A DNA stretch of 64,000 nucleotides from Cenarchaeum sp. (GCA_965242695.1 CBDESU010000002.1:224001-288000); one strand, 5' to 3'. Positions 3,226-18,652 are shown, counted from the stretch's first letter. Translations and numbers: made by a program. Notes: generated by a model from the letters alone, not told the origin.

Positions 3226-3349
3226 CACGGGCGGTTGCATGTGATGCCGCCTTTGCCACATGCTAGACGCGGGATCGCGCTCAAGGAGCGCCCGCTCCGC
3301 GGCGTCCATGCTGGTACGGCGAAGGCAGAAGGGGCGGGGCGAACGACAC

Positions 3350-5113
3350 ATGGTTATCTATAGCCTGGCGTACGACGACATAATGGACATGCTCGGGACG
3401 CTAAACCGCCGTCATTGCGTGAATGCCACGGTAATGAACAAGGGCCAGCTAGAAGCGGCCCTAGAAAAACCGGATTTGTCCATGTTCGGCAAAGTGTTCT
3501 ATCCCGAACTGCATCAAAAGGCCGCAATTCTTATGGAGTCTCTCTGCAAATCCCACTGTCTAAGCGACGGGAATAAACGCACATCGATGATGGCGGCGGA
3601 GTACCTGGTCAGCGCAAATGGCGCTACGCTCGTACTTCCGCTAAAATCCATACGCCTAACTGTCGATTGCGCCATGGACAAAGACGACAAGATGTCCGAC
3701 GAGCTGATCATGTGGTTCAAGACCCACATCGCTCAAGACCCGATCCAGCTCTCCATAATGTTTGAAGAGCTGATCGAGGAGCGGTTGATCGTGACCACGC
3801 TACTGAGCCAAGGCGAGTATGACAAGGCTGAGAAGATTGTCGACAAATGGCTTGTTTTTGACAATTATCCCGAAAGCAAGGCGATGTGGGATGATCTGAC
3901 GGACAAATGGAAAAAGCGAGACAGATCGATGGGATCTGAGCCGGGGGCGTCACGATCGAATTTTTCTCCATGGCTGTCTATAAGCCCCGAACTCAGAATA
4001 GAGGACAGTGTTAACCTTGCATCGATCCTGCCTGATGCCAGAGCAACCAACCCCGTTTATACGGAACACAGCATGAGCGAGCTAAAAAGGGTAGAAAATT
4101 ACATACAGGCGCAATCTGCACAGAGTAGTACGTCTTCGCTGCAGCGGGCAGCAGGCATCTTGGAAGGCTTCCACAGTCACAAGAATGCGTGTTTGGTTTA
4201 CGACAAGTTGATCGAAGTGGAGGGGAGGAGCAATCGCATTATGCATCGCAAGTTGTTTAACTTAGTCTTTAGCGAGCAATACAATGAAGCGCTGGCCTTG
4301 TCGAACCAGTTGCTAGAGTTGGATCAAAACTCCGTCCACGTAAACAGACTCAGAGCCAGAACGTGCGACATCATGGGAGATCGTTTGTCGGCACTGGAGT
4401 CTGCAAACCGAGTCCTAAAACAGATCCCGGATGATCTCCCCATGCTTAAAATCAAGGTGGACATAATCCGTGAGGATTATCCGTCGGACGCCACAAAACT
4501 GGACAGGGAAATATACCGCCTAGACCCCGACGATCTCGTGTCAGCTAAAAATATGGCGGTGTCGCTATCCGATCAGGGCAGAAACGAGGAAGCCATAAAA
4601 CTATTTGACAAAATACTGTCCAGAGCGCCCCGAGATGCCGCGGCGCATTATAGCAAGGGGCTATGTCTGTCACGCTTGGACAAAAACGAGGATGCGCTGA
4701 CATATTATGAAAAATCACTGCAAGTCGACCCAAGATATGTCATGGCGTTAATTAACATGGGAGCCATCTATATGAATGATGACAAAAAGAATGAAGCGTA
4801 TGACTGCCTATCCAAAGCGCTGAAATTGAGCCCCGAACACCCCATTGGTCTGCTAAATATGGGGGTAGTGCTACTGTCGCAGGAAAATGCTCAAGAGTCT
4901 ATCAACGTGCTCAACAAACTCCTTTCGGTCGATCATCTTAATGCCAACGGCATGTACTTGCTAGCACAGGCATACGTAAAACGTGATAAAACAGTCCACT
5001 CGCTTGACATTCTAGAGCGCCTTGTAAACATAGACCCGTCCTACAAATCTCGGATAAAAAATGACCCCAATTTTTATCAATTGCGAGACTTGCGCCGCTT
5101 TCAAAATCTGTAG
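3350..5113 (+). CDS. Doc/Fic-family toxin domain fused to C-terminal TPR repeats (~587 aa)
   Basis: Doc signature LEAALEKP...FYPELHQKAAILMESLCKSHCLSDGNKRTS, then multiple TPRs (AAAHYSKGLCL, ALINMGAIY, GLLNMGVVL). Visibly AT-richer than flanks. Start set at ATG 3350. Confidence 0.85.
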   Translation: MVIYSLAYDDIMDMLGTLNRRHCVNATVMNKGQLEAALEKPDLSMFGKVFYPELHQKAAILMESLCKSHCLSDGNKRTSMMAAEYLVSANGATLVLPLKSIRLTVDCAMDKDDKMSDELIMWFKTHIAQDPIQLSIMFEELIEERLIVTTLLSQGEYDKAEKIVDKWLVFDNYPESKAMWDDLTDKWKKRDRSMGSEPGASRSNFSPWLSISPELRIEDSVNLASILPDARATNPVYTEHSMSELKRVENYIQAQSAQSSTSSLQRAAGILEGFHSHKNACLVYDKLIEVEGRSNRIMHRKLFNLVFSEQYNEALALSNQLLELDQNSVHVNRLRARTCDIMGDRLSALESANRVLKQIPDDLPMLKIKVDIIREDYPSDATKLDREIYRLDPDDLVSAKNMAVSLSDQGRNEEAIKLFDKILSRAPRDAAAHYSKGLCLSRLDKNEDALTYYEKSLQVDPRYVMALINMGAIYMNDDKKNEAYDCLSKALKLSPEHPIGLLNMGVVLLSQENAQESINVLNKLLSVDHLNANGMYLLAQAYVKRDKTVHSLDILERLVNIDPSYKSRIKNDPNFYQLRDLRRFQNL

Positions 5114-5524: not shown

Positions 5525-6421
5525 TCATGCATCGCCGATCCTGATCGCATAGCGGCCGCCTCTGGCAGCAGAGGCGGTGCCCGTTCCGCTCCCGCCAGGA
5601 CTCTCCGTGTTGCCCTCTTCGCGCGCGTGCCCAAGCGCGGTCGGGACCTCGGAGGCGGGTGCGTGCAGGTCTCCCCCGTCCTTGTAGTCAGGGTGCGCCT
5701 CTGCATGCGCCCGTGCGCGCCCCGCTGCCGCCTCCCTCCATTCCTTGCAGCCCCACTTCCCGCCGCCGCGCATCCTGACCGAGCCGCCCCTTACTGCAAA
5801 CCCAAGGCCGCCCGTGCCGTCGCACATGCTCGAAATCGGCCTGGAGTAGAGTCCCTCGATCCACTTCCGCCCGCGTCCCTGCGAGACGTCGACGGCGGCC
5901 CCTGCGCCGGCAGCGGCATCGGCGGCGTCAACGCGGACGGTCCGGACGAACGTCTTGGCACTGCGAACCCAGCGGCGGCCCTCCGTCGTGCTGGCCGCAA
6001 GCGGCATGTAGAGGTCCCACGCGTCGACGACGAGGGTGCGGCCGAGCAGGCCGGCCCTGGCGCCCCACATCTTGCCGTTCGTCCCGACCGCGGGCAGGAC
6101 AAGGAACGAGGATGCCGGGCAGGTCTTCAGGAGCGCCGAGACCTGGCGGGAGGGCACCTTGAAGGACAGCGTGTCGCCGCTTGGCAGGGGCCGCTTGAAC
6201 TGCAGCAGCACGTACCTGCCGTCCGGCAGCTTGACCTGCGAGTCGTAGCCTAGGAGGGCCTCTGCATTCTGGGTCGGCGATGCCATCTCAACATAGCCCT
6301 CCTCAAGGGGTACCTTGCGCTCGATGCAGTTTGCTAGGTAGCGGAGCACGTTCACCTCGAGGGACATCTCGCTCGGTGCGGACGCGCCGGACAGGAGCGT
6401 TCGCTTGGCTGCGGGCGCCAT
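5525..6421 (-). CDS. putative PD-(D/E)xK (restriction-endonuclease-fold) protein (~298 aa)
   Basis: Motifs SEMSLEVNVL, EALLGYD...VLLQFKRP resemble E..GYD..QFK nuclease-fold families. ATG 6421 is ~25 nt downstream of minus-strand TATTA. Confidence 0.55.
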   Translation of the reverse strand: MAPAAKRTLLSGASAPSEMSLEVNVLRYLANCIERKVPLEEGYVEMASPTQNAEALLGYDSQVKLPDGRYVLLQFKRPLPSGDTLSFKVPSRQVSALLKTCPASSFLVLPAVGTNGKMWGARAGLLGRTLVVDAWDLYMPLAASTTEGRRWVRSAKTFVRTVRVDAADAAAGAGAAVDVSQGRGRKWIEGLYSRPISSMCDGTGGLGFAVRGGSVRMRGGGKWGCKEWREAAAGRARAHAEAHPDYKDGGDLHAPASEVPTALGHAREEGNTESPGGSGTGTASAARGGRYAIRIGDA

Positions 6422-6685
6422 CGGGCGGGCACCCCGCACGGGCGTAATAGCGCTTTGCCGTCCGATCGCCTTGATGCCGTCAGCCGTCACAAGGGCCATT
6501 GCGGCGAGCCGCCCGAGCGCCCCGCGCCACCTGCGGCCAGGGTGCGGGCAGGGGGCGCAGTCGGCCCGCCGCTCCCGCACCCCGTGCCGCCTGCGCAGGC
6601 GCTCCCGAGATGTAGCTGCCGCCCCGCCAAGCAATGCCGCCGGAAGCGCCGCGCCCCGAGCGCCGCGGCGGCCTTGGACTGCGGC

Positions 6686-7156
6686 TCACCACATCTCGTA
6701 CTTGCTGAGCGCGGCGTACTCGGGGTACCTTGCATAGACGTGCCTCAAGAGGTCGGGCAGGGCGGTGTCGTTGAACTCGGCCTTTATTTCCTCAAGCTTG
6801 TCGTACGCCTTGTTGAAGCCGTATTCTTCGTACCGCGGATCGGACAAGAGCCTGCCGGCGGTCTCCCTGCCCGCCTCGGTGATGGTATAGGTGTACACCG
6901 TCCTGGCGGGGCGATCAGAGTCTGACCTGCCCTCGCCTATCAGCCCGTCCGACGTGAGCGCGTCGATGTCCCGCTGAAGCGTCTTCGAGTACGGCCCGTA
7001 GTCGAACGGGGCAAAGCCCAAGTTGGGAATGCGCTCATCGTCCTTGAGGTGCTCCCGCATGAGAAAGATCATCTTTTGGAAGCGCGTCCGGCCTCGGACG
7101 GGCGCGCCGCCGCATGCATGCGCCAAGAGGAGCGGGTATACCTGCCTAGGAGTCAA
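6686..7156 (-). CDS. YwgA / DUF4065 (SocA/Panacea-like) protein (~156 aa)
   Basis: GRTRFQKMIFL...FAPFDYGPYSKTLQRDIDAL...YTITEAG...LLRHVYARYPEY. TTG start overlaps the stop of the upstream TrmB-like gene. Confidence 0.75.
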   Translation of the reverse strand: MTPRQVYPLLLAHACGGAPVRGRTRFQKMIFLMREHLKDDERIPNLGFAPFDYGPYSKTLQRDIDALTSDGLIGEGRSDSDRPARTVYTYTITEAGRETAGRLLSDPRYEEYGFNKAYDKLEEIKAEFNDTALPDLLRHVYARYPEYAALSKYEMW

Positions 7157-7886
7157 GATCCGGCACCCTAACCTCCTTGCCTGCCTTAAACCCCCTCTTG
7201 AACCTTTCCACATGCGGCGCCGCAAAGCTGCGATCCCTGACCAGCAGGGCGCAGTCGGGCGCCTCAAACCTGGCCATGACGACCTCGTCGTCAATCAGGC
7301 AGCACGTCTCAATGTCCCTGCACGTGCGGGCCTCTGCCCCGCGCATGTAGGGCTCGCCCGACATTGAAAGGGACTCGGGCACGGCCAGCTCGACCTTCAC
7401 CGTCTCCGCCTTTTTTGCCAGCATCTCGGCATGCGCATCAAGCCACCGCAGGTCGCGATCCGCTATCCTCACCGACTCCTTGCAGCCGGCCAAGAGCTCG
7501 TGCATCTGCACCTGTATGCCTCCCATGCCGTACACCGTCCAGCAGGCCGCGCTCCGGGCACCCTGCGCGTGCCTCTCCTCGTACGCCTCTTCGGCCGCGC
7601 CGACTGCCGCGTCCCTTGATGCCTGAAGGGCCGTGAGCTCCTTGTCGAGGACCCCCCGCGGGTGTTGCGCGTCGTACAGGGCGGGCCTGTCGCCGATCTT
7701 TACGATGACGCCCCTCTGGTTGAGCTCCTCAAGGACGGAGTATATCTTGCCCTGGGCGACCCCCGACCTAGCAGCCAGGTCGGCTGGCTTCATCACCCCC
7801 TGCTCGACCAGGGTGGCATAGACGGATGCGTTGCCCTCGCTCCAGCCGATCCCCTTTAACGCCTCGACGAGGCGATCGCGGGCCAT
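7146..7886 (-). CDS. TrmB-family transcriptional regulator (wHTH + effector-binding domain)
   Basis: LKGIGWSEGNASVYATL...LAARSGVAQGKIYSVLEELNQRG...RPALYDAQHP is the TrmB N-terminus. TTATAA at 7911-7916 lies 25 nt before ATG 7886. Confidence 0.88.
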   Translation of the reverse strand: MARDRLVEALKGIGWSEGNASVYATLVEQGVMKPADLAARSGVAQGKIYSVLEELNQRGVIVKIGDRPALYDAQHPRGVLDKELTALQASRDAAVGAAEEAYEERHAQGARSAACWTVYGMGGIQVQMHELLAGCKESVRIADRDLRWLDAHAEMLAKKAETVKVELAVPESLSMSGEPYMRGAEARTCRDIETCCLIDDEVVMARFEAPDCALLVRDRSFAAPHVERFKRGFKAGKEVRVPDLDS

Positions 7887-8005
7887 CCGGCCGCGCCGCC
7901 TCATGCTCCCTTATAACAATACTATCGTACGCGGGGCCAACCTGTGTTCATCCGTGAGTTTTTTTGAGTGCTTTTATATAGGGGGGTAGAAGGCCCCCCG
8001 GCAAG
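7887..8005. promoter_or_regulatory. divergent promoter region with two TATA boxes
   Basis: TTATAA (7911-7916, leftward gene) and TTTATATA (7973-7980, rightward gene) each sit ~25 nt from the start codon in a 119-bp AT-richer gap. Confidence 0.7.
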
Positions 8006-8302
8006 ATGAGGAAAAATGTCATCGTCATCGATGCCGCCAACGCCCGAGAGGCAAGCGTGAGCGTCGATGACGGCGAGACAATCGACTCTGCCCTCGACAG
8101 GGGGTACGAGGAGCTCGGAGAGACGCGCCGCCCCAACGCCCATTTTGTGGACGGAGAGGGGAATAGCCTCGACGGCAAGCTGAGCGAGCCGGTCCGCACG
8201 ATCGAGACCGACCAGGACGGCAACACGACCATCGAGATCAGGAGCCCCACAGGGGGCGCCTGCCTTTTTTCTATCGGAGGGGACGGGGATGGCGCCTGCT
8301 AG
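8006..8302 (+). CDS. ubiquitin-like (beta-grasp) protein with internal GG and short C-terminal extension (BilA-like)
   Basis: 98 aa acidic protein with a beta-beta-alpha-beta pattern ending IEIRSPTGG|ACLFSIGGDGDGAC. First gene of an E2-JAB-E1-JAB operon. Confidence 0.7.
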   Translation: MRKNVIVIDAANAREASVSVDDGETIDSALDRGYEELGETRRPNAHFVDGEGNSLDGKLSEPVRTIETDQDGNTTIEIRSPTGGACLFSIGGDGDGAC

Positions 8303-8819
8303 GCCCGACACCGCGATCGCCCGATCGCAGTTCAAAGAGGACCTGATCAAGGTCGCGGGCAGCAGGCGCGCCAGGCAGCACGGCTGGCTGTTCAAGCCGG
8401 ACTACAAGGGCCTGCGCCTGCGCGTCGACATGTGGTCGCTTGACAAAGGCTGCGAACGGCGCGACGACTACCACATAGACATGGACATGTCGTACTACCG
8501 CGACTGGCCGCCCGGCGTGACCTTTGTCAACCCGGACACGGGATCCTTCGATCCGAACAGGGACGCGCGGTGGCTTCCCGCAAACCCCGCCATGAACCCA
8601 CCCGGCGTCAATATCGGCTACCACCTCTCGTACACCCTGACCGACGGCGTGACCAAGCAGATGGTCTGCAACTCGATGGTGCTAGAGTACTACCAGTCGA
8701 ACCATGCGCCCAAGCCCGAAGAGGTGTGGGATTCCAGGCGCCACACCCTGCATGCGACCCTGACGGTGCTCCAAGACCTGCTAAGGGAGCCGTACTACGG
8801 AGGTCGACGCTCGCAATGA
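8289..8819 (+). CDS. E2/UBC-like conjugating enzyme (BilB-like)
   Basis: UBC-like YHIDMDMSYYRDWPPGVTFVNP and candidate catalytic Cys in QMVCNSMVLEYYQSNH...W. Overlaps the Ubl stop, with ATGA coupling to the next gene. Confidence 0.75.
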   Translation: MAPARPDTAIARSQFKEDLIKVAGSRRARQHGWLFKPDYKGLRLRVDMWSLDKGCERRDDYHIDMDMSYYRDWPPGVTFVNPDTGSFDPNRDARWLPANPAMNPPGVNIGYHLSYTLTDGVTKQMVCNSMVLEYYQSNHAPKPEEVWDSRRHTLHATLTVLQDLLREPYYGGRRSQ

Positions 8820-9364
8820 GCCCCTCTCAGGACGCTATCCCGATCGCGGCTGCGGGCGACGGCAAAAGGACGCTCCTTGTCCAGAAAAGCCTCGTCGAGG
8901 AGACGTACCGCATGTTCGAGCGAAACAGGTGCAGGCAGAGGGTGTCGGTCGCCTACTGGTACGGGACAGGACGGCCGCAACTCGGGACAAGCGCCGTCCT
9001 GTCCTTGGGAGTGCCCCGGGCCGAGTGCAATGTGGTCGACTACCATGTGGAAGAGCCAGAGATCGCCCGCCTCGGCCACGCAATAAGGAGACAGGCGCCG
9101 GGGTCGATGGGGTCGCTGGCGCAGTTCTATACCCAGCCGAGCGGGGACGGACGACACTCCAAGAACGAAGACCTCAACGCCATCAGCCTGCGCGACGGCT
9201 TTCTGTCCCTGGCCGCGCCCTACTACGGGAAGAGGACGGAGCCGCTCATGGGCAACATAACCGTGCACGAGTGCTGGAAGGGCCGCTGGCGCGTACTGGG
9301 AGAGTCGGAGCGCCCTGGGCGCATCAAGATCATCGACAGCCTTGTCGACATGGAGGCGGGCTGA
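8816..9364 (+). CDS. JAB/MPN-domain protein lacking catalytic residues (pseudo-deubiquitinase, 182 aa)
   Basis: Paralogue of 11107-11847, but RVSVAYWYG / QFYTQP...HSKNED replaces EESVVYWYG / QFHTHP...HSDHDD. ATG 8816 overlaps the E2 TGA. Confidence 0.8.
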   Translation: MSPSQDAIPIAAAGDGKRTLLVQKSLVEETYRMFERNRCRQRVSVAYWYGTGRPQLGTSAVLSLGVPRAECNVVDYHVEEPEIARLGHAIRRQAPGSMGSLAQFYTQPSGDGRHSKNEDLNAISLRDGFLSLAAPYYGKRTEPLMGNITVHECWKGRWRVLGESERPGRIKIIDSLVDMEAG

Positions 9365-11110
9365 ATGGAAAGGCACCTGGACAGCCGCGGGGGCCGCCTG
9401 CCTCGAATCGGTGCAGGGGCCAAGAGGGTGGCCGTCTCCATATCCGAGGCGGCCGCGGAGGGTTCCGAGGGGCAGGCCATGCTGTGGACCGCCTGCAACC
9501 TGCTGTGCAGGCTAAAGGGAGTCGTCGGCGAGCTGGCAGTCTGCGTCCCAGAGGGGGTCGACGTGGCGGCAGGCGCTCCCCCTCCCGCGCCAGGGCGGGG
9601 CGATCTTGGCAGGTCCCTCGTCGACTCGCTCGACGCGTGCTCGCGCGGCTGCGATGTGCGGCTCGCGCAGGGCGAGCCGGAGCAGGGGCTTGATGCCGCC
9701 GTGCTGCTCGGCACGGGCGCACCAGCCGGCACGGGGGCGGCATTCGAGGTCCATGCGGCCTGCTCGGGATGGCTGGCATACGTGTGGCAGGGCTCGAGAC
9801 CCGCGCCGGATGCGGCCGCGCCTAGCGGCGACGGCCACAACCCGTTCGGCGCGGCGACGGCGGCCTGCCTTGCGGTCGGAGAGGTGTTCAAGCGCCTAGG
9901 CGGCCTGGACGTCAAAAAGGGCCGGTTTGCCGAGTCGCTGTGCTTTTCGACCTACGATCTAGAGGTGCATGGAGGACGGGAGGATGCCCCGGCCAACCCG
10001 GCCCTGCCTGCGCATATAGATCTCGGGCGGATTGCGGTCTGCGGCGCCGGCGCAGTGGCGCATGCGTTCTGCCAGGCGATCGCCTCGCTTGGCGAAGTCA
10101 AGGCCGACCTGCTCGTCGTCGACAGAAAGTCCAACTACGCCCTGGGCGACGAGTCCGTCGAGCCGACCAACCTGGCGCGGTACGTCATGGCGACTGGCGC
10201 CGACATAGGGCGCCCCAAGGCCGAGGTACTGTGCGGGAGGATCCGCTCGCCCTGCATACGGGCGGAGCACACCGACGAGGGGATAGAGGCCCTGGCCAGC
10301 AGCGGCGGGCTGTCCGGCGAGGGGCACGTCGTCTCGTGCGTCGACAACAACAGGGCGCGGCACGCCATCCAGGGCTGCATCCCCCGCATCATACGCGGCG
10401 GCAGCGTGTACGACCTGTCCTCCAGGGTGTCCGTATACGACATGGCAGGCGGCACCGCGTGCCTCAGGTGCGAGAACCCCGTCGAGGCGGGCGAGAGCGA
10501 CGAGGGCGTGGCCGAGCGGCTGCGCGACATGGAGCCGGATCGGCGGCGGGCCGAGGCGGGGCGCGCCGGCGTAGACCCCGGCGACCTGGACAGGTACCTA
10601 GAGTCGCCCGCGTGCGGCGCGCTCTCGGGCGATGCGCTGCGCAGGCTCGCCGCCGCCCTTCCCCCCGAATTCTCGGTCAACTTTGCGACCATGCTGAGCG
10701 GCACCCTCCTCGCCGCCGAGGCGTTCAAGGCGGCCTGCCCGCCCCTGCGCCCCGCGCTGGACGGGGCGGCGCGCTCGGACATGTTCTACAGCTTTTGGAA
10801 CTGCCGCCACCGGCTCTCGCGCACGGCGCCGTTCCCCGAGTGCTGGTGCCGCGCAGGGGGCACGACGCCGAGGGACATACATGGAGAAAAGTGGGGGCCG
10901 AAGGCGGCAGCGGCTGGACGGCAAGGGGCAAGCCGCGCCCTGCGCGGCGGGGCGGCGCCGGAGGCGGGCGGGGCGGCAGGAGACGAATGGCGTCCGGCAG
11001 GGGGCCCGAAGGGGAGGGGCGCAGGAGTGGCCGGCCGACTCGAACCCCGCCTCCACGTGCGCCCGCAAGCTGGGGCGGCAGGGCTGCGGCGCGGAGCGTG
11101 GCGCGCATGA
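9365..11110 (+). CDS. E1/ThiF-family Ubl-activating enzyme with N-terminal inactive-adenylation-like domain (BilD-like)
   Basis: IAVCGAGAVA, VEPTNLARY, RPKAEVL, SCVDNNRAR, Zn-site CLRC...ECWC, candidate catalytic Cys in SPACG. N-terminal domain has NPFGAATAACLAVGEVFK. Confidence 0.88.
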   Translation: MERHLDSRGGRLPRIGAGAKRVAVSISEAAAEGSEGQAMLWTACNLLCRLKGVVGELAVCVPEGVDVAAGAPPPAPGRGDLGRSLVDSLDACSRGCDVRLAQGEPEQGLDAAVLLGTGAPAGTGAAFEVHAACSGWLAYVWQGSRPAPDAAAPSGDGHNPFGAATAACLAVGEVFKRLGGLDVKKGRFAESLCFSTYDLEVHGGREDAPANPALPAHIDLGRIAVCGAGAVAHAFCQAIASLGEVKADLLVVDRKSNYALGDESVEPTNLARYVMATGADIGRPKAEVLCGRIRSPCIRAEHTDEGIEALASSGGLSGEGHVVSCVDNNRARHAIQGCIPRIIRGGSVYDLSSRVSVYDMAGGTACLRCENPVEAGESDEGVAERLRDMEPDRRRAEAGRAGVDPGDLDRYLESPACGALSGDALRRLAAALPPEFSVNFATMLSGTLLAAEAFKAACPPLRPALDGAARSDMFYSFWNCRHRLSRTAPFPECWCRAGGTTPRDIHGEKWGPKAAAAGRQGASRALRGGAAPEAGGAAGDEWRPAGGPKGRGAGVAGRLEPRLHVRPQAGAAGLRRGAWRA

Positions 11111-11847
11111 GCGGATACTGGCGGCCGAGCCACGAGGTCCTGCGGGCCAGCAAGAGCGGCAGGCGCCTTGCCGTGCCGAGGCGCCTGCTGGACGCGACGT
11201 ACGACATATTCGCCGAGCACGGGGACCGCCGCGAGGAGTCCGTGGTCTACTGGTACGGGGCCGAGTCGCTCCGCACCGGCCGCGGCGGAAAGATCGACTT
11301 GGTCGCGGCGGTCGGGGTGCCCCGCGGCAGGTACGCCGAGGGGCAGTTCGCGGTGCAGGCCGACGACGCGGCGCGCCTGGGCAGGGCGATGATGTCGCAG
11401 TCCCTCTCGTGCCTGGCGCAGTTCCACACGCATCCCGGCCGCGGCACCGAGCACTCCGACCACGACGACGGGAACGCGATCAGCATGCGCGACGGCTTTC
11501 TGTCGCTCGTCGCGCCCTGCTACGGGGGCGCAGGGCGCTCCCTGCGGGACGGCGTGACCGTTCACGAGGCCTGGGGGCGCCGGTGGTGCGTGCTGGGCGG
11601 CGGGGCGGCCGAAAAAAGAATCTTTGTCATTGACGACATTGTCGACCAGCGGCAACCGCTGCGCGGAGAAAGGGGCGGCGGGGCCGAGGCCGGGACGGGC
11701 GGGGCGCCGCCTGCGCCGCCCGTACTGCGCCGCGCCGGCGCTGGGGACGCAGACGGAACGGCGCCTGGGCGCGGCGCGGCCGGGCCGCTCTCCCGCGCGG
11801 CATCAGTCATACTATGCAGGATAAAGAGGGCTTTCGGCAGGGCGTAG
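11107..11847 (+). CDS. JAB/MPN+ metallo-isopeptidase (deubiquitinase-like, BilC-like, 246 aa)
   Basis: Intact JAMM motif E(ESVVYWYG)...HTHPGRGTEHSDHD. ATG 11107 overlaps the E1 TGA. Low-complexity C-terminal tail. Confidence 0.85.
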   Translation: MSGYWRPSHEVLRASKSGRRLAVPRRLLDATYDIFAEHGDRREESVVYWYGAESLRTGRGGKIDLVAAVGVPRGRYAEGQFAVQADDAARLGRAMMSQSLSCLAQFHTHPGRGTEHSDHDDGNAISMRDGFLSLVAPCYGGAGRSLRDGVTVHEAWGRRWCVLGGGAAEKRIFVIDDIVDQRQPLRGERGGGAEAGTGGAPPAPPVLRRAGAGDADGTAPGRGAAGPLSRAASVILCRIKRAFGRA

Positions 11848-11989
11848 GCAGATCCCGCGTGGGGCGCCGCTGGCCCGGAGGGGCGCGAGGGTGGCGGCGC
11901 GGGGCGCCGTCCCCGGGCGGTGCGGCAGAGCCGCCCGGCGGGCGGTCCTGTCCATGGGGGTGCGGCGCGCCGCTGGCCGCACTTGTGGC

Positions 11990-12606
11990 GCTGGCAGGCG
12001 CGGCCGATGCGACAAGGCTCCTGCCCAGGCACATAATCCTGCTGTACATCTGGTACGCCAAGACGAACGCCTACTAGGACAGCATCGCCATTCAGAGGAG
12101 GATCGGGCAGAAGACTGCGAGTCGCTACATAGCAATCGCCAAGGATGTGCTGTCCCGGACGCTCCCGACGCAGTGCAAATACGGCGGGCACATCCAGAGG
12201 CAGGCCCACATGCGCGAGATGAAAAAGTACCTGCCGGGCCGGACCGCGGCACGCGCATCGAGGACGGCATGCTCAACAGGATGCAGCGGTCGGGGCAGAA
12301 GGGCCCTCACGACAGGTCGTACAACGGGCGCAAAAAGGCCTACATGGCAACACGCTGGGCAGGTTCAGCGCCCGCGGCGAGATGGTCCCGGTGACTCCGA
12401 CCGACAAGGGCACATGCAACGACGTCACCATGGCGAGGAAGTACTGCCTGCACCGGGTCATTGCCACGCAGTGGCTGCACGATCCACACGCGCCGCAGAT
12501 GGACCGCGTGCACCGCATCGACGACACGGAGTTCGCATGCATCGAGACGGAAAAGCCCTGCGCGGACACGTTCGGGCCGGGCCAGAACCACCCCCGCGTC
12601 GACTAG
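11990..12606 (+). pseudogene. IS5/ISL2-like (HTH_Tnp_4 / DDE_Tnp_4) transposase remnant
   Basis: Fragments ILLYIWYAKTNAY*DSIA..IGQKTASRYIAIAKDVL, IEDG..RMQRS..SYNGRKK and KGTCNDVT, interrupted by a stop and frameshifts. Confidence 0.55.
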
Positions 12607-12705
12607 ATCGCAGTCGACGACACGGCCCTCTGGCGCGCCGCATACTGTGGCAGTGAGCGGCTCGGCCACCACCACTAGCGTGCCGGCGATCGGCTACGTG
12701 TACAA

Positions 12706-13677
12706 TCAATGATCGTCAAGTGTAGTCTGAACCGCAGACATGTTTTCGCTACACATCTTGTCCAAGAGAAATTCCCTGACATTCTTTTGGCGTGGTAGTG
12801 CATTAATGCGGTACCTGCCATCAGGAAGTTTTTTCGCTAATTTCATTTTATATAGCGTTTTCAGTCCGCGTGTTATCCAGCGAGTCCTTATCTGACTTTG
12901 CTCACCTTGTAGCCCCGACCAGCTTGCATAGTAGTTGTCAAGTCTACTTTTGAGATCTTCAACTGTCACTGTAATGTAGCCCTTCTTGTCAGCAATCAAT
13001 GGCAGTACGTTTTGGTAAAGCATGGACAGCACATAAAGGTCTGGAGGACTCGCTCTTACAAACAATCTTTTTTCATACCTGGCATGCGTCACCTCTATAG
13101 GCATCTCAATGCAAGCGTTCAGGCGTTTGTCGAAATACTTGCAGCCGGTACTTCCACTATCAAGGCCAAGTCGTATCACCTCCCGGGTCTTTCGACCCTT
13201 TATTTTTACTTCCTCCCAATGACCCAAACATAGATTTGTTGCGGTGATGGATGCACCGCTCTTATTTTTTTGCATCAGGACGCGGGCGTGTTCTACATCA
13301 ACCTTACGGACAAGAAGCAGTATAGAGTGCTCCCTGATTCTACCGTTATTAGTCTTCCATCCCGTCTCAATTTCGGCATATTTGGCGATTTGTTCCCCCA
13401 GGTCACGAACCATGTGCTCCTGGTCCTGCGGCAACGACGACTTGATTTCGCAGACTATTCCTTTTCTGTCATTGTCACACTGGAAAATTGCATCGGGCTG
13501 GACATCTTTTGATGCAGCCGTGCGCATTGTCGGCTCGCTTACCTTGAAGCTGCACTCCTCGTTGGGGCCAAAGGCATCTTTCAGTCCCACAGATACTACC
13601 ACTGTGGCATAGTATGCATCGTATTCAGCGTTGCACCGTTCTCTGCAGTTTTCTGCGGAGTGCTCGTCACCATTCAT
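12706..13677 (-). CDS. PD-(D/E)xK nuclease-like protein with probable C-terminal winged helix (323 aa)
   Basis: VQPDAIFQ...GIVCEIKSS motif; C-terminal WITRGLKTLYKMKLAKKLPDGRYRI. AT-rich; overlaps the upstream gene by 11 nt. Confidence 0.65.
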   Translation of the reverse strand: MNGDEHSAENCRERCNAEYDAYYATVVVSVGLKDAFGPNEECSFKVSEPTMRTAASKDVQPDAIFQCDNDRKGIVCEIKSSLPQDQEHMVRDLGEQIAKYAEIETGWKTNNGRIREHSILLLVRKVDVEHARVLMQKNKSGASITATNLCLGHWEEVKIKGRKTREVIRLGLDSGSTGCKYFDKRLNACIEMPIEVTHARYEKRLFVRASPPDLYVLSMLYQNVLPLIADKKGYITVTVEDLKSRLDNYYASWSGLQGEQSQIRTRWITRGLKTLYKMKLAKKLPDGRYRINALPRQKNVREFLLDKMCSENMSAVQTTLDDH

Positions 13678-14713
13678 ACTCGCCGATCACGCCCTCGTAA
13701 AATGCAGATGCCAGGAACTCTGTAAGTCGCAGCAACGACGCCTCGGATGTCCGGATCTGCGGTATTATGGCCAGTGCATCGTCACCCACAGACCTTACGG
13801 CAATTGTGGAGTTGTCCATTCTGTCCACTATGGATATGTAGAGGTGTGGGTTGCCGGCATGCACTATCACATAGTTGCAGTGTGTATACTCATCGATCAG
13901 ATTGCAAAACCGCTTCATGTCGTCATCGTCTGCGAACACGTCCCTTTTGTACTTGATCAGCAAAGGCTTCGGTTCTTTGTCAGCGCGTTCGCTCCGGCTG
14001 CGGTGCGAAAAGCGGTTGCGGCGTTCTAATCCATTGTCTATGATCGGGCGCAGTACGTTGGCGTATATCCCCTCTACGTTTCCACTGTGGATAGTGATCA
14101 GCCCCTTGCGGGATACAGTTATGTCCATGGCCTCGCGTCCATCTGTGAATGCGCGTAGGCTGTCAATCACCAAGTTCTTTTTTTCGGCGTCTTTGAATAC
14201 ATCTTCGACAGCGTCATACTCGCGGTTCGCAGCAGTTTTGTCCCATTCCAGAGAGGTCTTTGGCATGGTGCCAATGGTCCTTTTCTTCACGGATTTCTTG
14301 TGCTTTAGTGACGCGCCTGTATTCGCCTCAAACTCTGCAAGGATGCTCCTGATTTTTCCAGACTCGGTAAACGGTGCAAGCACCTCCGGCCCTAGTCTCT
14401 TGACGATGCGCTGTACTATGTCAAAAAACCCACCTCCTTCGCCGCTGAACAGGAGCACATGGCTGTCCTGCTGTAGCGAGTGGAGCCTTCCGTTGGTGTC
14501 TTCGCATGTCACTGAATATATGCTATGGGTGAACGAATCGTGCTGGTCCTTGGAGATCATTGCCACCTTGGCGACAGCATGACTCACTGTGGTGATCATG
14601 CTGGAAATGTCCCCCTCCGACATGAGGCACTGGACCTTTAGCGATCTGCACTCCCTCATGTAGGAATTGACCGCCATGGCTAGATCCAGCGGCATGTCTA
14701 TCGAGTCGCTCAC
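13667..14713 (-). CDS. hypothetical protein (348 aa), first gene of an AT-rich two-gene module
   Basis: Long open frame with normal globular composition, coupled to the nuclease-like gene. No motif recognised. Confidence 0.75.
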   Translation of the reverse strand: MSDSIDMPLDLAMAVNSYMRECRSLKVQCLMSEGDISSMITTVSHAVAKVAMISKDQHDSFTHSIYSVTCEDTNGRLHSLQQDSHVLLFSGEGGGFFDIVQRIVKRLGPEVLAPFTESGKIRSILAEFEANTGASLKHKKSVKKRTIGTMPKTSLEWDKTAANREYDAVEDVFKDAEKKNLVIDSLRAFTDGREAMDITVSRKGLITIHSGNVEGIYANVLRPIIDNGLERRNRFSHRSRSERADKEPKPLLIKYKRDVFADDDDMKRFCNLIDEYTHCNYVIVHAGNPHLYISIVDRMDNSTIAVRSVGDDALAIIPQIRTSEASLLRLTEFLASAFYEGVIGEYEW

Positions 14714-15019
14714 GAGGCCTGCGCCCAGGCTAGCTATCTAAACCTTGCCCCTTGTCTCCTTCCGCAGGCCCCGTAGCGGTGCCGCGCGGGACGCTGCATC
14801 CCCTGCGAGGCGCGCGCGTACACGAACGGCGCAGTCGCGCCAAGGCGGCGCGCCGCCATGCGCCAGCCGATGCCACCTGGCGGCTGGCGCGCCGTAGAGC
14901 GCGCGGCAGGCAGAGCCTAGAGCCGGCGGGCGCTGCATCTAGAGCCGCCATCCGCTTGCGCCCCTCCTCCCCTCCTCCCCCCGCCAAGCCTATTAATGCG
15001 CCCGCGCCGGCGGCGGCGC

Positions 15020-15646: not shown

Positions 15647-18361
15647 CTACGGTATCAGCACCGTCTGTATCCTGGTCTCGGCCGGATCGGCGGGCTGCTC
15701 TGGGAACCTGCCGCCCTCGAGCTCGACTGACGCTAGCGCATCGACCGTAGCATGCCCCTCCGTCACCATGCCAAACACCGTGTACTGCCCGTCGAGCCAC
15801 GGCGCATCCCCTAGAACGACAAAGAACTGCGAGCCGGCGCTGTCGATGTCGGCCCCCCTTGCCATCGACACCGCGTACTTTGTGTGCGTCGCCATGCCGC
15901 TGATCTCGGCGGGTATCGCGTAGCCTGGGCCGCCGGCCCCCCACGTCTCGCGCTCGCCCCCTATGGTATTTGGATCCCCGCCCTGCATGACAAACCCGGG
16001 GTTTATCCGGTGGAATATCGTCCCGTCGTAGAAGCCCGCGCTGGCCAGGCTCCTAAAGTTCTCCACCGTGCGCGGCGCAATGTCCGGCCTCAGCTCTATC
16101 GTAAAGTCGCCTGCGGCGGTCCTCACCACGGCAGTCCCGAGCGCCATCCTCTGCTGCTCGGCGATCATCTCCTGCACCTCTTCCATCGTCGGCACGTCCG
16201 GATCGTACTCCTTGTTCACCTCGTACACCAGAACGGCCGTCACCGGCCCCGGCGACTCGCGCCAAAACGTCTCGGACGCGTACGCGAGCCGGAACGGGCC
16301 CGTACCGTCGGGCGGGTACTTCAAGTCCATCGCGTACACGGGCGTGTACCCCGGGACGTACGAGCCGGACTGCTCGTTGGTCATCGGGTTTACGTACGCG
16401 ATGACAGAGTAGGGGATGATCCTGCCGGCCAGGGTGCTGTCCCAAAAGTGGTCAGTCCCCGACAGGCCGTCCACATGCAGGTATTTTTCCACGGGATCGT
16501 CGGCGGCAATCCTCATGAACCACTGCTTCTTGCTCTCGTCGCCGCCCCCGTTGAGCAGGTACGCCCCGACGGGCTCGCTCTGTATCTTTGTCCCCGCCAC
16601 GAATATCAGCACATAGTCGGCCCCCATCTCGTTGAGCCTCTTCCACGCCTCGTCCGGGTCGGCGAGCATCGTCCGCGCGATCTCGCGGATCGCCGACGTG
16701 TCCATCGTCGCGTTGTCGGCAAGCGACGTGCGGTTTCCAAGCGTCGTAATCCAGTACCCGTAGTCCCACCAGGCGGCGACCACGGATCCCTCGGGCGTCT
16801 GCGTCCGCATCCACTCGAGCGAGTCCGGCCAGTCGCCGAACACGGCGCCAAAGTTGGTCCCCCCGTTGAGTATGGTCGGCGGCGCCCGCACGCTGTCGAC
16901 CCAGTTGCCCTGTATGGGGACGACGGTAGGCACGAGAAGCAGGCCGACCACGGCCGAGACGAACGCGATCTTGCCGGCAAGCGGCATGCCGCGCACGTGC
17001 CGCTTTGTGCGCACGTCGGGGCGGAGGGCCTCAGACGCCAGCACTGCAAGCCCTATCGACGAGAGCACGATGACGGCAAGCGATGCGAACAGCTCGAGGC
17101 GGATGAACGTAGAGCTCACGTACGCGCCGGCCACGCCGAATATGAGCGCAAACGCGATCATGTCGGCCGGCAGGCGGATCCTGTACGACCGTATGCGCTC
17201 CCTGTTCGAGAATATCAGCCAGGCGCCGATCCCCGCGAACACCATCAGTATCGACAAAAAGAAGAACGACTGCGCGGTCGTCGTCGTGGCGTGCTCGGCG
17301 ACCGAGTCGACGAGCGGGTCGACCGACCTGAGGAACGGGTTGAGCGCGTTCTGGTACCGGAACGAGGGGAGCGCTATGAACCCCGCCGCGGCGTTGGCGG
17401 CGAGCACGCCGGCGCCGGCTGCGACCGTCCCGCCCAGGAAGATCAGGCCGTTGCGCAGGGCGGCGGCCCTGCGCGAAAAGCGCTGCAGCAGCGACGAGGC
17501 GGCGAGGTACGCGGCCGAGCCGCCGACCAGCACGCCGCCGATCCCCTCGACGAACCCGATCCCCGGCCTCTCAAAGAGCGGCACCGTCCCGAGGAACGCG
17601 ACCGCGAACACTGGCACAGACCACGCAAGGAACGAGTGGTCGCGGCGCAGCAGCGGCAGCGCCAGCAGGAACAGGCACAGGGGCACCACTATGTACTGGA
17701 TGCCGCCCCACGACGCCAGTCCGAACGTGAGCATGACGCCGCCGGCGGCCATGCGGGCCCCGGCGATCGCCCGGCCCCGGGGCGTCCCTCCCCCGTCGCC
17801 TCCCCTAAGCGCGCTCAGGAACAGGTACACGCCGAGCAGGCCGTAGAACAGGCCGACCGGCTCGGACTTGAACCAGCCGATCGTCCCCCTCACTATCACG
17901 GGCACGGACACGGCAAAGAGCAGGGACGCGAACAGGCCGGCCGTCGTCCCGCCGATCACCCTGACCAGCGCGAACACGACGACCGCCGTCAGCGAGCCGA
18001 ACACGGCGGGCACCAGTATCGTAAAGTCGTACAGGGGCATTCCGCCGCCAAAGGCGGCGTACGTGTAGGCGGCCGTAATGTGGAGCATGGTCTGCGAGGT
18101 AGCCGAGATGTCGCGGCCGTTGGGGAACCAGCTCATCGTGTCGTGCCAGTCCAGGTACGCCGGCAGGCCGTGGTCCACGAGGTACTCGGTGGCGCGGTAG
18201 TTGAAGAACGGGTCGAACTCGTTGAGCTCGTACCCAAACTCGGCAGGCTGCGCCCGTATCAGGAACGAGACGGAGAATGCGGCGGCGAGCACACCGACGA
18301 CGAGCAGGTGGTGCAGGCGCAGCTCGAACCGGCCCACGGTCGCCAGGCGGGCGTTGGACAT
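15647..18361 (-). CDS. aglB: oligosaccharyltransferase STT3/AglB fused to C-terminal cyclophilin-type PPIase (~904 aa)
   Basis: EFDPFFNYR, SVAEH, AAWWDYGYWI, DNATM, DESKKQWF with many TM helices; then APRTVENF..FYDGTIFHRINPGFVMQGGDP..SAGSQFF..WLDGQYTVFG. Confidence 0.95.
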   Translation of the reverse strand: MSNARLATVGRFELRLHHLLVVGVLAAAFSVSFLIRAQPAEFGYELNEFDPFFNYRATEYLVDHGLPAYLDWHDTMSWFPNGRDISATSQTMLHITAAYTYAAFGGGMPLYDFTILVPAVFGSLTAVVVFALVRVIGGTTAGLFASLLFAVSVPVIVRGTIGWFKSEPVGLFYGLLGVYLFLSALRGGDGGGTPRGRAIAGARMAAGGVMLTFGLASWGGIQYIVVPLCLFLLALPLLRRDHSFLAWSVPVFAVAFLGTVPLFERPGIGFVEGIGGVLVGGSAAYLAASSLLQRFSRRAAALRNGLIFLGGTVAAGAGVLAANAAAGFIALPSFRYQNALNPFLRSVDPLVDSVAEHATTTTAQSFFFLSILMVFAGIGAWLIFSNRERIRSYRIRLPADMIAFALIFGVAGAYVSSTFIRLELFASLAVIVLSSIGLAVLASEALRPDVRTKRHVRGMPLAGKIAFVSAVVGLLLVPTVVPIQGNWVDSVRAPPTILNGGTNFGAVFGDWPDSLEWMRTQTPEGSVVAAWWDYGYWITTLGNRTSLADNATMDTSAIREIARTMLADPDEAWKRLNEMGADYVLIFVAGTKIQSEPVGAYLLNGGGDESKKQWFMRIAADDPVEKYLHVDGLSGTDHFWDSTLAGRIIPYSVIAYVNPMTNEQSGSYVPGYTPVYAMDLKYPPDGTGPFRLAYASETFWRESPGPVTAVLVYEVNKEYDPDVPTMEEVQEMIAEQQRMALGTAVVRTAAGDFTIELRPDIAPRTVENFRSLASAGFYDGTIFHRINPGFVMQGGDPNTIGGERETWGAGGPGYAIPAEISGMATHTKYAVSMARGADIDSAGSQFFVVLGDAPWLDGQYTVFGMVTEGHATVDALASVELEGGRFPEQPADPAETRIQTVLIP

Positions 18362-18652
18362 CAAGCGAGCGGCGCGGGCGGCGCGGCGCATATTACCTTT
18401 TGTGGGGCGCGGGCCGCGGCTGCGCATGGGTCTGGACGGCATCCAGGCCGCGGCGTCTCCCTGTCGGCGGGCGGGGCGATCGCGGGCAGGGGGCGCCGCC
18501 CCTTGTCCGGCCCGCCCCCTCCCGCCGAGGGACGGGGGCGCCCTTCCCTCCCGGCCCGCGGCAGGCCGCGTGCGCGATGCGCCCCGGGGCCGCATCCGCG
18601 GCCCGGCACTGCGCCGGAAAGATTATTGAAGACGGGGCGCGGGCCGCCCCCG

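Follow-up and report, generated by a model that had tools for sequence, protein, structure and literature searches.

Among prokaryotes, the nearest equivalents of eukaryotic ubiquitination are the Bil systems, which, to our knowledge, have so far been studied only in bacteria. The reference for their type II form is the BilABCD operon of Ensifer aridi TW10 (PDB entries 8tyx, 8tyz and 8tz0; preprint 10.1101/2023.09.26.559546), which encodes a ubiquitin-like protein (Ubl; BilA), an E2 (BilB), a JAB-type deubiquitinase (DUB; BilC) and an E1 (BilD), in that order. Here we examine five open reading frames (ORFs) at positions 8006-11847 on the plus strand of a 64,000 nucleotide stretch of a Cenarchaeum sp. 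genome (referred to throughout as the window; the genome is 3.89 Mb in size, in 2 contigs, and 96% complete). These probably constitute a homologue, in an archaeon, of the type II BilABCD (CEHH/6C) operons of bacteria, with a clade-specific, five-gene form: an accessory system, most likely directed against viruses or other mobile elements, in which a JAB paralogue with degenerate catalytic residues (the pseudo-JAB) has been retained beside a JAB predicted to be active (JAB2). An earlier interpretation of the same DNA, made without database searches (the sequence-only reading), had presented the operon as a distinct system and the best candidate for an undescribed one. On sequence comparison, the system itself is a divergent archaeal branch of the described type II Bil, and it is the pseudo-JAB/JAB pair that is the new element.

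In the available part of the preprint, the table of type II operons has columns for CapP, CapH and BilA-D only, and its sole archaeon is Heimdallarchaeota LC_3, with no Nitroso- or Thaumarchaeota listed (10.1101/2023.09.26.559546). Full-text literature searches, whose scope did not extend to the version of the preprint that appeared in Nature in 2024 or to Hor et al. 2024, found neither a thaumarchaeal Bil system nor one with an inactive JAB. The available parts of Makarova and Koonin 2010 and of Iyer et al. 2006 mention neither; within the literature searched, no dead/live JAB pair was found either. The genome contains an archaeal amoA above the Pfam cut-off, which justifies the earlier attribution of the operon to an ammonia-oxidiser lineage. 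As a compact and complete version, the operon would extend the Bil family to an abundant archaeal lineage, the ammonia-oxidising archaea.

Similarity of the five proteins to type II Bil

The five ORFs are co-oriented and overlap or abut one another, with a G+C content at third codon positions of 0.81-0.92 across the gene cores. On the sequence evidence they are not chance ORFs, because relatives of the E2 are found in 33 protein clusters, the gene order recurs and residues are conserved. The fold and motif assignments set out below are those supported by sequence comparison and structural models.

Of the five proteins, family libraries recognise only the E1 and JAB2. Residues 222-458 of the E1 match Pfam ThiF (E = 4.2e-11) and residues 21-337 match PADLOC BilD (5.1e-11), and the E1 profile retrieved BilD from the PDB (8tyz_A, 2.4e-27) with MccB as the runner-up (1.6e-9). 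Invariant in all five E1s compared are a GxGxxG loop, D327 within SCVDN, the pairs C366/C369 and C493/C495, and C417, which lies inside an insertion following the CxxC. Judging by what is generally known of ThiF and MoeB, we take the loop, the aspartate and the paired cysteines to serve in ATP and zinc binding. C417 is the predicted catalytic cysteine, an assignment that leans on the CYS domain described for BilD in the available part of the preprint (10.1101/2023.09.26.559546). The two-domain E1 proposed by the sequence-only reading is thus recovered as an N-terminal region followed by a ThiF adenylation domain; as predicted from sequence, the protein has the type II architecture of an extra, inactive adenylation-like domain at the N terminus, an adenylation domain that is active, and a helical insertion bearing a Cys.

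Relatives of the E2 at E<=1e-3 are mostly 173-176 aa long, and one of their 33 clusters bears the name of a Thaumarchaeota archaeon hypothetical protein. From 29 relatives an AlphaFold2 model was obtained with a pLDDT of 93.6, and when it was compared with the PDB using Foldseek, the top match was BilB (8tz0_C, 2.4e-4), from the complex of E. aridi E1, E2 and Ubl, with UBC enzymes of eukaryotes coming next. The same ranking was obtained when a profile of the wider family, comprising 51 sequences, was searched against PDB sequences (BilB, 1.7e-4; eukaryotic E2 and UEV proteins next, at 0.1-0.9). The family is small: among 1.84 billion representatives scanned in full with HMMER, only 102 were relatives at E<=1e-3. 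Its wider membership is not confined to archaea, because one cluster, of 14 members, contains a hypothetical protein from Luethyella okanaganae, an actinobacterium. The E2 carries the motif C127-N128-x4-E133-x-Y135-x3-H139 (C-x5-E-x-Y-x3-H), which is CEHH-like and is found as CNEYH in 25 of the 29 relatives, so that the earlier description of a Cys-bearing E2 agrees with both motif and UBC-fold model. In the remaining four relatives (P0033, P0034, P0035 and P0037), Cys127 is replaced by Arg and His139 is lost as well; these are apparently E2-like variants of this family without catalytic activity. Three members of the wider family (P0062, P0063 and P0087) are 265-376 aa long with the E2 domain at the C terminus; these are possible fusions with an N-terminal domain, perhaps of a Ubl-E2 type.

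The AlphaFold2 model of the Ubl has a core pLDDT of about 87 and a beta-beta-alpha-beta-beta topology, with residues 82-98 disordered. BilA was the top Foldseek match (8tyx_A, 6.1e-6; 8tyz_B, 2e-4), ahead of SUMO and ubiquitin. G83-G84-A85 is invariant in all 13 Ubls of the family and is followed by 0 to 13 variable residues. In the available part of the preprint, BilA of E. aridi is described as having a conserved Gly followed by a tail that is removed by BilC (10.1101/2023.09.26.559546), and the Ubl has the same predicted features: a beta-grasp fold, a conserved Gly and a short tail that would be removable. The 98 aa product that the sequence-only reading took for a GG-containing Ubl is therefore modelled as a beta-grasp protein. 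Completing the set, a joint profile of the two JABs retrieved BilC (8tyx_B, 1.3e-12) from the PDB, and JAB2 matches PADLOC BilC (1.3e-9), with its match to Pfam Prok-JAB falling below the cut-off of that family.

In these profile and structure searches, which the sequence-only reading had proposed as a check of its type II Bil-like assignment, the best match in the PDB was a type II BilABCD chain for each of the four protein types. The likeness extends to the gene order (Ubl, E2, JAB and E1, with JAB2 added after the E1), the single beta-grasp Ubl with a conserved Gly and tail, the UBC-fold E2, whose Cys...His pair flanks an E, the E1 architecture, the JAMM DUB and the lack of an E3: as claimed previously, neither a RING nor any other E3 family was found in a Pfam scan of 14 neighbouring ORFs. 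The locus differs in its archaeal host, in an E2 belonging to a small separate family with its own motif spacing, in the longer Ubl tail and in the JABs considered below. Type I BilABCD, represented by Collimonas sp. OK412, has the same four functions in the same order, and it is from PADLOC BilD and BilC that the library matches to the E1 and JAB2 come; however, neither the Ubl nor the E2 has a PADLOC match at E<=1, and the type I Ubl is described in the available part of the preprint as having two beta-grasp domains (10.1101/2023.09.26.559546), whereas that of the window has one.

A number of observations weigh against so close a kinship. Searches of Pfam, PADLOC, NCBIfam and PHROGs gave no match for the Ubl, the E2 or the pseudo-JAB. 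A sequence profile of the Ubl gave only chance-level matches in the PDB, the best being to Cas12a (0.066), and the E2 is linked to BilB weakly in sequence, at 0.072 with the narrow profile and 1.7e-4 with the wide one; Pfam Metal_CEHH is matched by two of the 51 members of the wider family, and not by the E2 of the window. The CEHH residues of type II Bil E2 are given in the available part of the preprint as C138, E144, H146 and H151, with C138 and H151 conserved in both Bil types (10.1101/2023.09.26.559546); the window E2 keeps the equivalent C127, E133 and H139, but Tyr135 stands where the first His would be, and the interval before the last His is shorter by one residue. Finally, the Ubl has 14 residues after the GG, compared with up to nine in the bacterial set as far as the available text describes it.

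It is very improbable that the locus is instead a sulfur-carrier or SAMP-like system, in which the E1 alone would act on the Ubl and the E2-like protein would be non-catalytic. Such a system would resemble the locus in combining a beta-grasp modifier, an E1 and a JAMM protease in an archaeon, as do the Caldiarchaeum and Asgard systems; the E1 has weak NCBIfam matches to ThiF, MoeB and SAMP E1, and the cysteine is missing in the four E2 relatives noted above. However, these NCBIfam matches are far under the family cut-offs (UbaA, 23.8 bits against 450), and SAMPylation employs no E2, whereas the window encodes one with a UBC fold that retains both Cys and His; what was found is thus not a UbaA-family E1 acting without an E2. 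The E1 is BilD-like in its extra N-terminal domain and Cys insertion, and no cofactor-biosynthesis genes were found nearby. From the ubiquitin-E1-E2-RING systems of Caldiarchaeum and Asgard archaea the locus differs in having no RING E3 among the neighbours scanned, and Caldiarchaeum ubiquitin ranks only 49th among the fold matches of the Ubl.

The pseudo-JAB and JAB2

The sequence-only reading had recognised two JABs, one of them inactive, and their alignment accords with this: JAB2 keeps E44, H107, H109, S117 and D120, and where it has E-H-H-S-D the pseudo-JAB has V-Y-Q-S-E. The two are paralogues with 40% identity (E = 4e-38). The same replacements are found throughout four further clusters of pseudo-JAB relatives (P0044-P0047; 67-88% identity), whilst the nearest active-type relative, P0048, is 49% identical to the pseudo-JAB and has an intact motif. 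An active JAMM deubiquitinase is therefore not found at the BilC position, as it is in type II Bil; the intact BilC-like JAB sits after the E1 instead. Read from these motifs, the DUB function has moved to the fifth gene.

Related loci in the class Nitrososphaeria have four genes. Five loci in species-representative genomes, two of them nearly identical, have the arrangement Ubl-E2-JAB-E1 with one JAB, and the metagenome-assembled genomes in which they lie carry the titles Nitrosotalea sp., Nitrosopumilus sp., Thaumarchaeota archaeon and uncultured archaeon; five metagenome contigs follow the same order as far as their short sequences reach. Proteins of these loci (L001-L005 and L031-L034) are 40-57% (E2), 32-43% (E1) and 38-45% (JAB) identical to those of the window, and the gene order and overlaps are the same. 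However, in place of one dead and one live JAB there is just one, whose HTHP motif is intact in all nine loci that cover it, and no second JAB follows the E1 in any of the six that have at least 3.8 kb beyond it. The combination of a dead position-3 JAB and an extra live JAB after the E1 was found only in the clade to which the window itself belongs.

Within that clade, public contigs were aligned to positions 7000-12700 of the window. A contig of 4,469 bases from run X5 aligns without gaps to 8373-12011, differing at 101 positions (approximately 97% identity), and one of 4,724 bases from run X6, a sponge metagenome from another study, covers 8097-11010 and 11080-12011 at approximately 92% identity. 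Hence the five-gene layout exists in a diverged relative. As regards the archaeal survey of the five-gene order suggested by the sequence-only reading, the layout recurs in this contig, and the other related loci carry four genes.

The history of the JABs was reconstructed from a maximum-likelihood, midpoint-rooted tree of 13 sequences. A long stem branch leads to a clade of four pseudo-JABs (100/99). This clade is sister to P0048 (98/94), and JAB2 falls outside the group that they make up together (91/92). Given this topology, the pseudo-JAB is, on the sequence evidence, the descendant of the resident position-3 DUB, and JAB2 an older paralogue or an import. A recent tandem duplication of the pseudo-JAB was considered as the origin of JAB2 and rejected, owing to the low identity between the two and to this position in the tree.

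Sequence conservation makes it reasonably likely that the pseudo-JAB has a non-catalytic role, because it keeps the blocks shared across the JAB family (YWYG; S-x-R-x-G-F-L-S-L...P-x-Y-G; H-E...W) and its full length across five clusters. It is unlikely, on a rough estimate, to be a functionless relic in decay, which would leave the locus effectively a four-gene BilABCD with its DUB replaced by the copy after the E1. The loss of catalytic residues and the long stem branch fit such decay, as does a faster divergence of the pseudo-JAB (67% identity, compared with 76% for the E2 and 79-83% for the Ubl, in relatives presumed to come from one contig of 259,406 bases). On the other hand, the frame is intact and the protein full length (179-182 aa) in five clusters down to 67% identity, one 150 aa cluster being partial; 88 alignment columns are invariant, including blocks common to active JABs; and the ATGA and TGA|ATG coupling around the gene is kept. 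No indel falls within the pseudo-JAB among those listed for the 92% identical relative, six further indels being unlisted.

By analogy with E. aridi BilABCD, JAB2 would trim the 14 residues after Gly84 from the pro-Ubl, and the E1 would adenylate Gly84 and then hold the Ubl as a thioester on Cys417. Transfer to Cys127 of the E2, with His139 assisting, would be followed by attachment to target lysines without an E3, and JAB2 might also reverse the conjugates. A pseudo-JAB retained as a non-catalytic subunit could act as the partner of JAB2, or could bind the Ubl or its conjugates and so gate processing or deconjugation. Natural variants within the family may prove informative: a dead DUB stands beside a live one, and the E2 lacks Cys and His in four relatives.

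Pairs of this sort are familiar from eukaryotes, in which Rpn11-Rpn8, CSN5-CSN6 and BRCC36-Abraxas each combine an active JAMM peptidase (MPN+) with a paralogue lacking zinc or catalytic residues (MPN-). As far as can be told from the motifs, the operon similarly encodes a paralogue without zinc ligands and catalytic Glu together with an active one, although the two are paralogues with 40% identity encoded in one operon of a prokaryotic conjugation system, whereas the eukaryotic proteins are subunits of large complexes. We tentatively suggest, as a possibility rather than an expectation, that ammonia-oxidising archaea of this clade, living in association with sponges, have evolved such an MPN-/MPN+ pair of their own, with the dead JAB either an obligatory partner of the live one or a non-cleaving reader of the Ubl or its conjugates, timing the maturation or removal of the tag; this would be an independent parallel, in defence against archaeal viruses, to Rpn8-Rpn11 and CSN6-CSN5. 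The dead/live pair offers a simple system for studying how pseudo-DUB subunits arise and what they do.

Distribution and possible role in defence

The E2 was found in none of the 60 relatives sampled, of which four share the genus of the window's genome, a further 32 its family and another 24 its order. The JAB profile matched 16 of 401 genomes of the class, including that of the window, which alone has two strong matches; among the other 400, two matches are strong and correspond to two of the four-gene loci, and 13 are distant. A tblastn search of the 13 distantly matching genomes (loci L014-L026 and L028) found an E1 match adjoining the JAB in 11, with one locus giving only an E1 match and one only a JAB match at the settings used. 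A second, distant JAB-E1 pair, 27-33% identical to the window proteins, lies approximately 200 kb away in the same genome (G000:C2:426049-426468; L008/L029). Hence divergent JAB-E1 cassettes, as identified by sequence similarity, are scattered in the class Nitrososphaeria, with distant pairs both in this genome and in others of the class.

Upstream of the operon, the divergently oriented gene for a TrmB-family regulator has homologues in the same position in L001 and L002/L003 (36-40% identity), and so does the gene beyond it (6686-7294), which matches PADLOC PDC-M19A (3.6e-11) and DarG (1.5e-5), as well as PHROG 14939 (2.3e-7). This pair of neighbours was not found in the remaining related loci. 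Together they probably regulate the operon, in place of the CapH and CapP of type II Bil. Further upstream is a 617 aa protein (3260-5113, plus strand) with an N-terminal Fic part resembling PADLOC PDC-S23 and a C-terminal TPR region. The operon has the character of an accessory island because the E2 was found in none of the 60 relatives and strong JAB matches in only two of 400 genomes, and because of the PDC-M19A-like and PDC-S23-like neighbours; as read from sequence, such an island is compatible with defence, though no proof of it.

On the grounds of this patchy distribution and these neighbours, defence against viruses or other mobile elements is the most likely role. If true, this would add defence by protein conjugation to the scant knowledge of immunity in these archaea. 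A lesser possibility is that the same conjugation chemistry serves a non-antiviral purpose, such as the regulation or turnover of the cell's own proteins, or host association. In the available part of the preprint, most of the 162 type II operons are from Rhizobiaceae, plant-associated rhizobia, and the defence role of type II Bil is suggested, not shown (10.1101/2023.09.26.559546); the approximately 92% identical relative comes from a sponge metagenome, and neither virus-derived sequence nor any canonical or known complete defence system was identified beside the operon. An E1 profile scan of viral contigs gave 34 pattern matches, none of them confirmed, which speaks neither for nor against a viral link. 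However, the patchy distribution, with the E2 found in none of 60 relatives, makes a housekeeping role less likely, the neighbours are similar to proteins proposed to act in defence or as toxin-antitoxin pairs, and type I Bil protects against phage, according to the introduction of the preprint (10.1101/2023.09.26.559546).

Gene layout and flanking sequence

The arrangement of five genes put forward by the sequence-only reading was reproduced on re-examination of the DNA, including each of its junctions: a 14 nt overlap of the Ubl and E2 genes (8289-8302), an ATGA joining the E2 stop to the pseudo-JAB start (8816-8819), TGA|ATG between the pseudo-JAB and E1 (9362-9367), and a second ATGA where the E1 ends and JAB2 begins (11107-11110). 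The TATA-like sequence it had reported is likewise present, as a putative promoter. Coordinates of the principal features are given in the table.

Table. Principal features of the operon and its upstream region, in window coordinates.
Feature	Position	Strand	Description
Ubl (BilA-like)	8006..8302	+	98 aa; beta-grasp core 1-81, invariant T-G-G-A at 82-85, 13-residue tail past A85
Gly83-Gly84 codons	8252..8257	+	Predicted C terminus of mature Ubl; invariant columns; processing proposed by analogy with BilA Gly97
E2 (BilB/CEHH-like)	8289..8819	+	176 aa; assigned from AlphaFold2 model, Foldseek and profile against PDB
Cys127 codon	8667..8669	+	Predicted E2 catalytic cysteine; motif C127 N128 E133 Y135 H139
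Pseudo-JAB	8816..9364	+	182 aa; JAB2 paralogue with catalytic residues replaced
Degenerate JAMM motif of pseudo-JAB	9128..9169	+	Y105-T-Q107 ... S115 ... E118; from alignment with active JABs
E1 (BilD-like)	9365..11110	+	581 aa; conserved core to about residue 513 (nt ~10903), then unconserved GC-rich tail
Cys417 codon	10613..10615	+	Predicted E1 catalytic cysteine in helical insertion after CxxC; role proposed from BilD CYS domain
JAB2 (BilC-like JAMM peptidase, predicted active)	11107..11847	+	246 aa; core from 1 to about 183, tail unconserved
Intact JAMM motif of JAB2	11425..11466	+	H107-T-H109-x7-S117-x2-D120
TATA-like box TTTATATA	7973..7980	+	25 nt 5' of Ubl ATG; read from sequence, putative promoter
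TrmB-family transcriptional regulator	7146..7904	-	Divergent from operon; Pfam TrmB 1.1e-13
Upstream conserved gene, PDC-M19A-like and DarG C-terminal region-like	6686..7294	-	Start codon uncertain, probably within this ORF

Between the TATA-like box and the Ubl start codon is an inverted repeat of the form G6-N7-C6 (GGGGGGTAGAAGGCCCCCC; 7981-7999), which could be an operator or a 5' hairpin. An Rfam scan of 6000-15000 gave no match.

The last 68 aa of the E1 ORF (10904-11110) and the last 64 aa or so of the JAB2 ORF (11656-11847) are unconserved, Arg/Gly/Ala-rich and without codon periodicity, with a GC content of about 78-81%. In the contig from run X6, indels cluster at 10914-10940 and the segment 11010-11080 is replaced, both within the 68-residue E1 tail. 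A hidden further gene in this tail was considered and rejected, given the lack of periodicity in the E1 frame and these indels and replaced segment, and from its sequence the tail is treated as a low-constraint extension.

Downstream of the operon, a 551 base segment (12013-12563) has a second copy in the genome with 89% identity (G000:C2:1117228-1117779). At its edges contigs from other runs are broken, and their summed depth is higher in this segment, which probably represents a repeat, or a piece of a mobile element, that bounds the island. Beyond it, on the minus strand, two overlapping genes of 323 and 348 aa (12706-14713) lie in a stretch of lower GC content (about 54%) and have no match in Pfam, PADLOC or PHROGs. 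These are followed on the same strand by a 982 aa ORF (15647-18595), in which STT3/AglB oligosaccharyltransferase domains are joined to a C-terminal cyclophilin-type peptidyl-prolyl isomerase domain.

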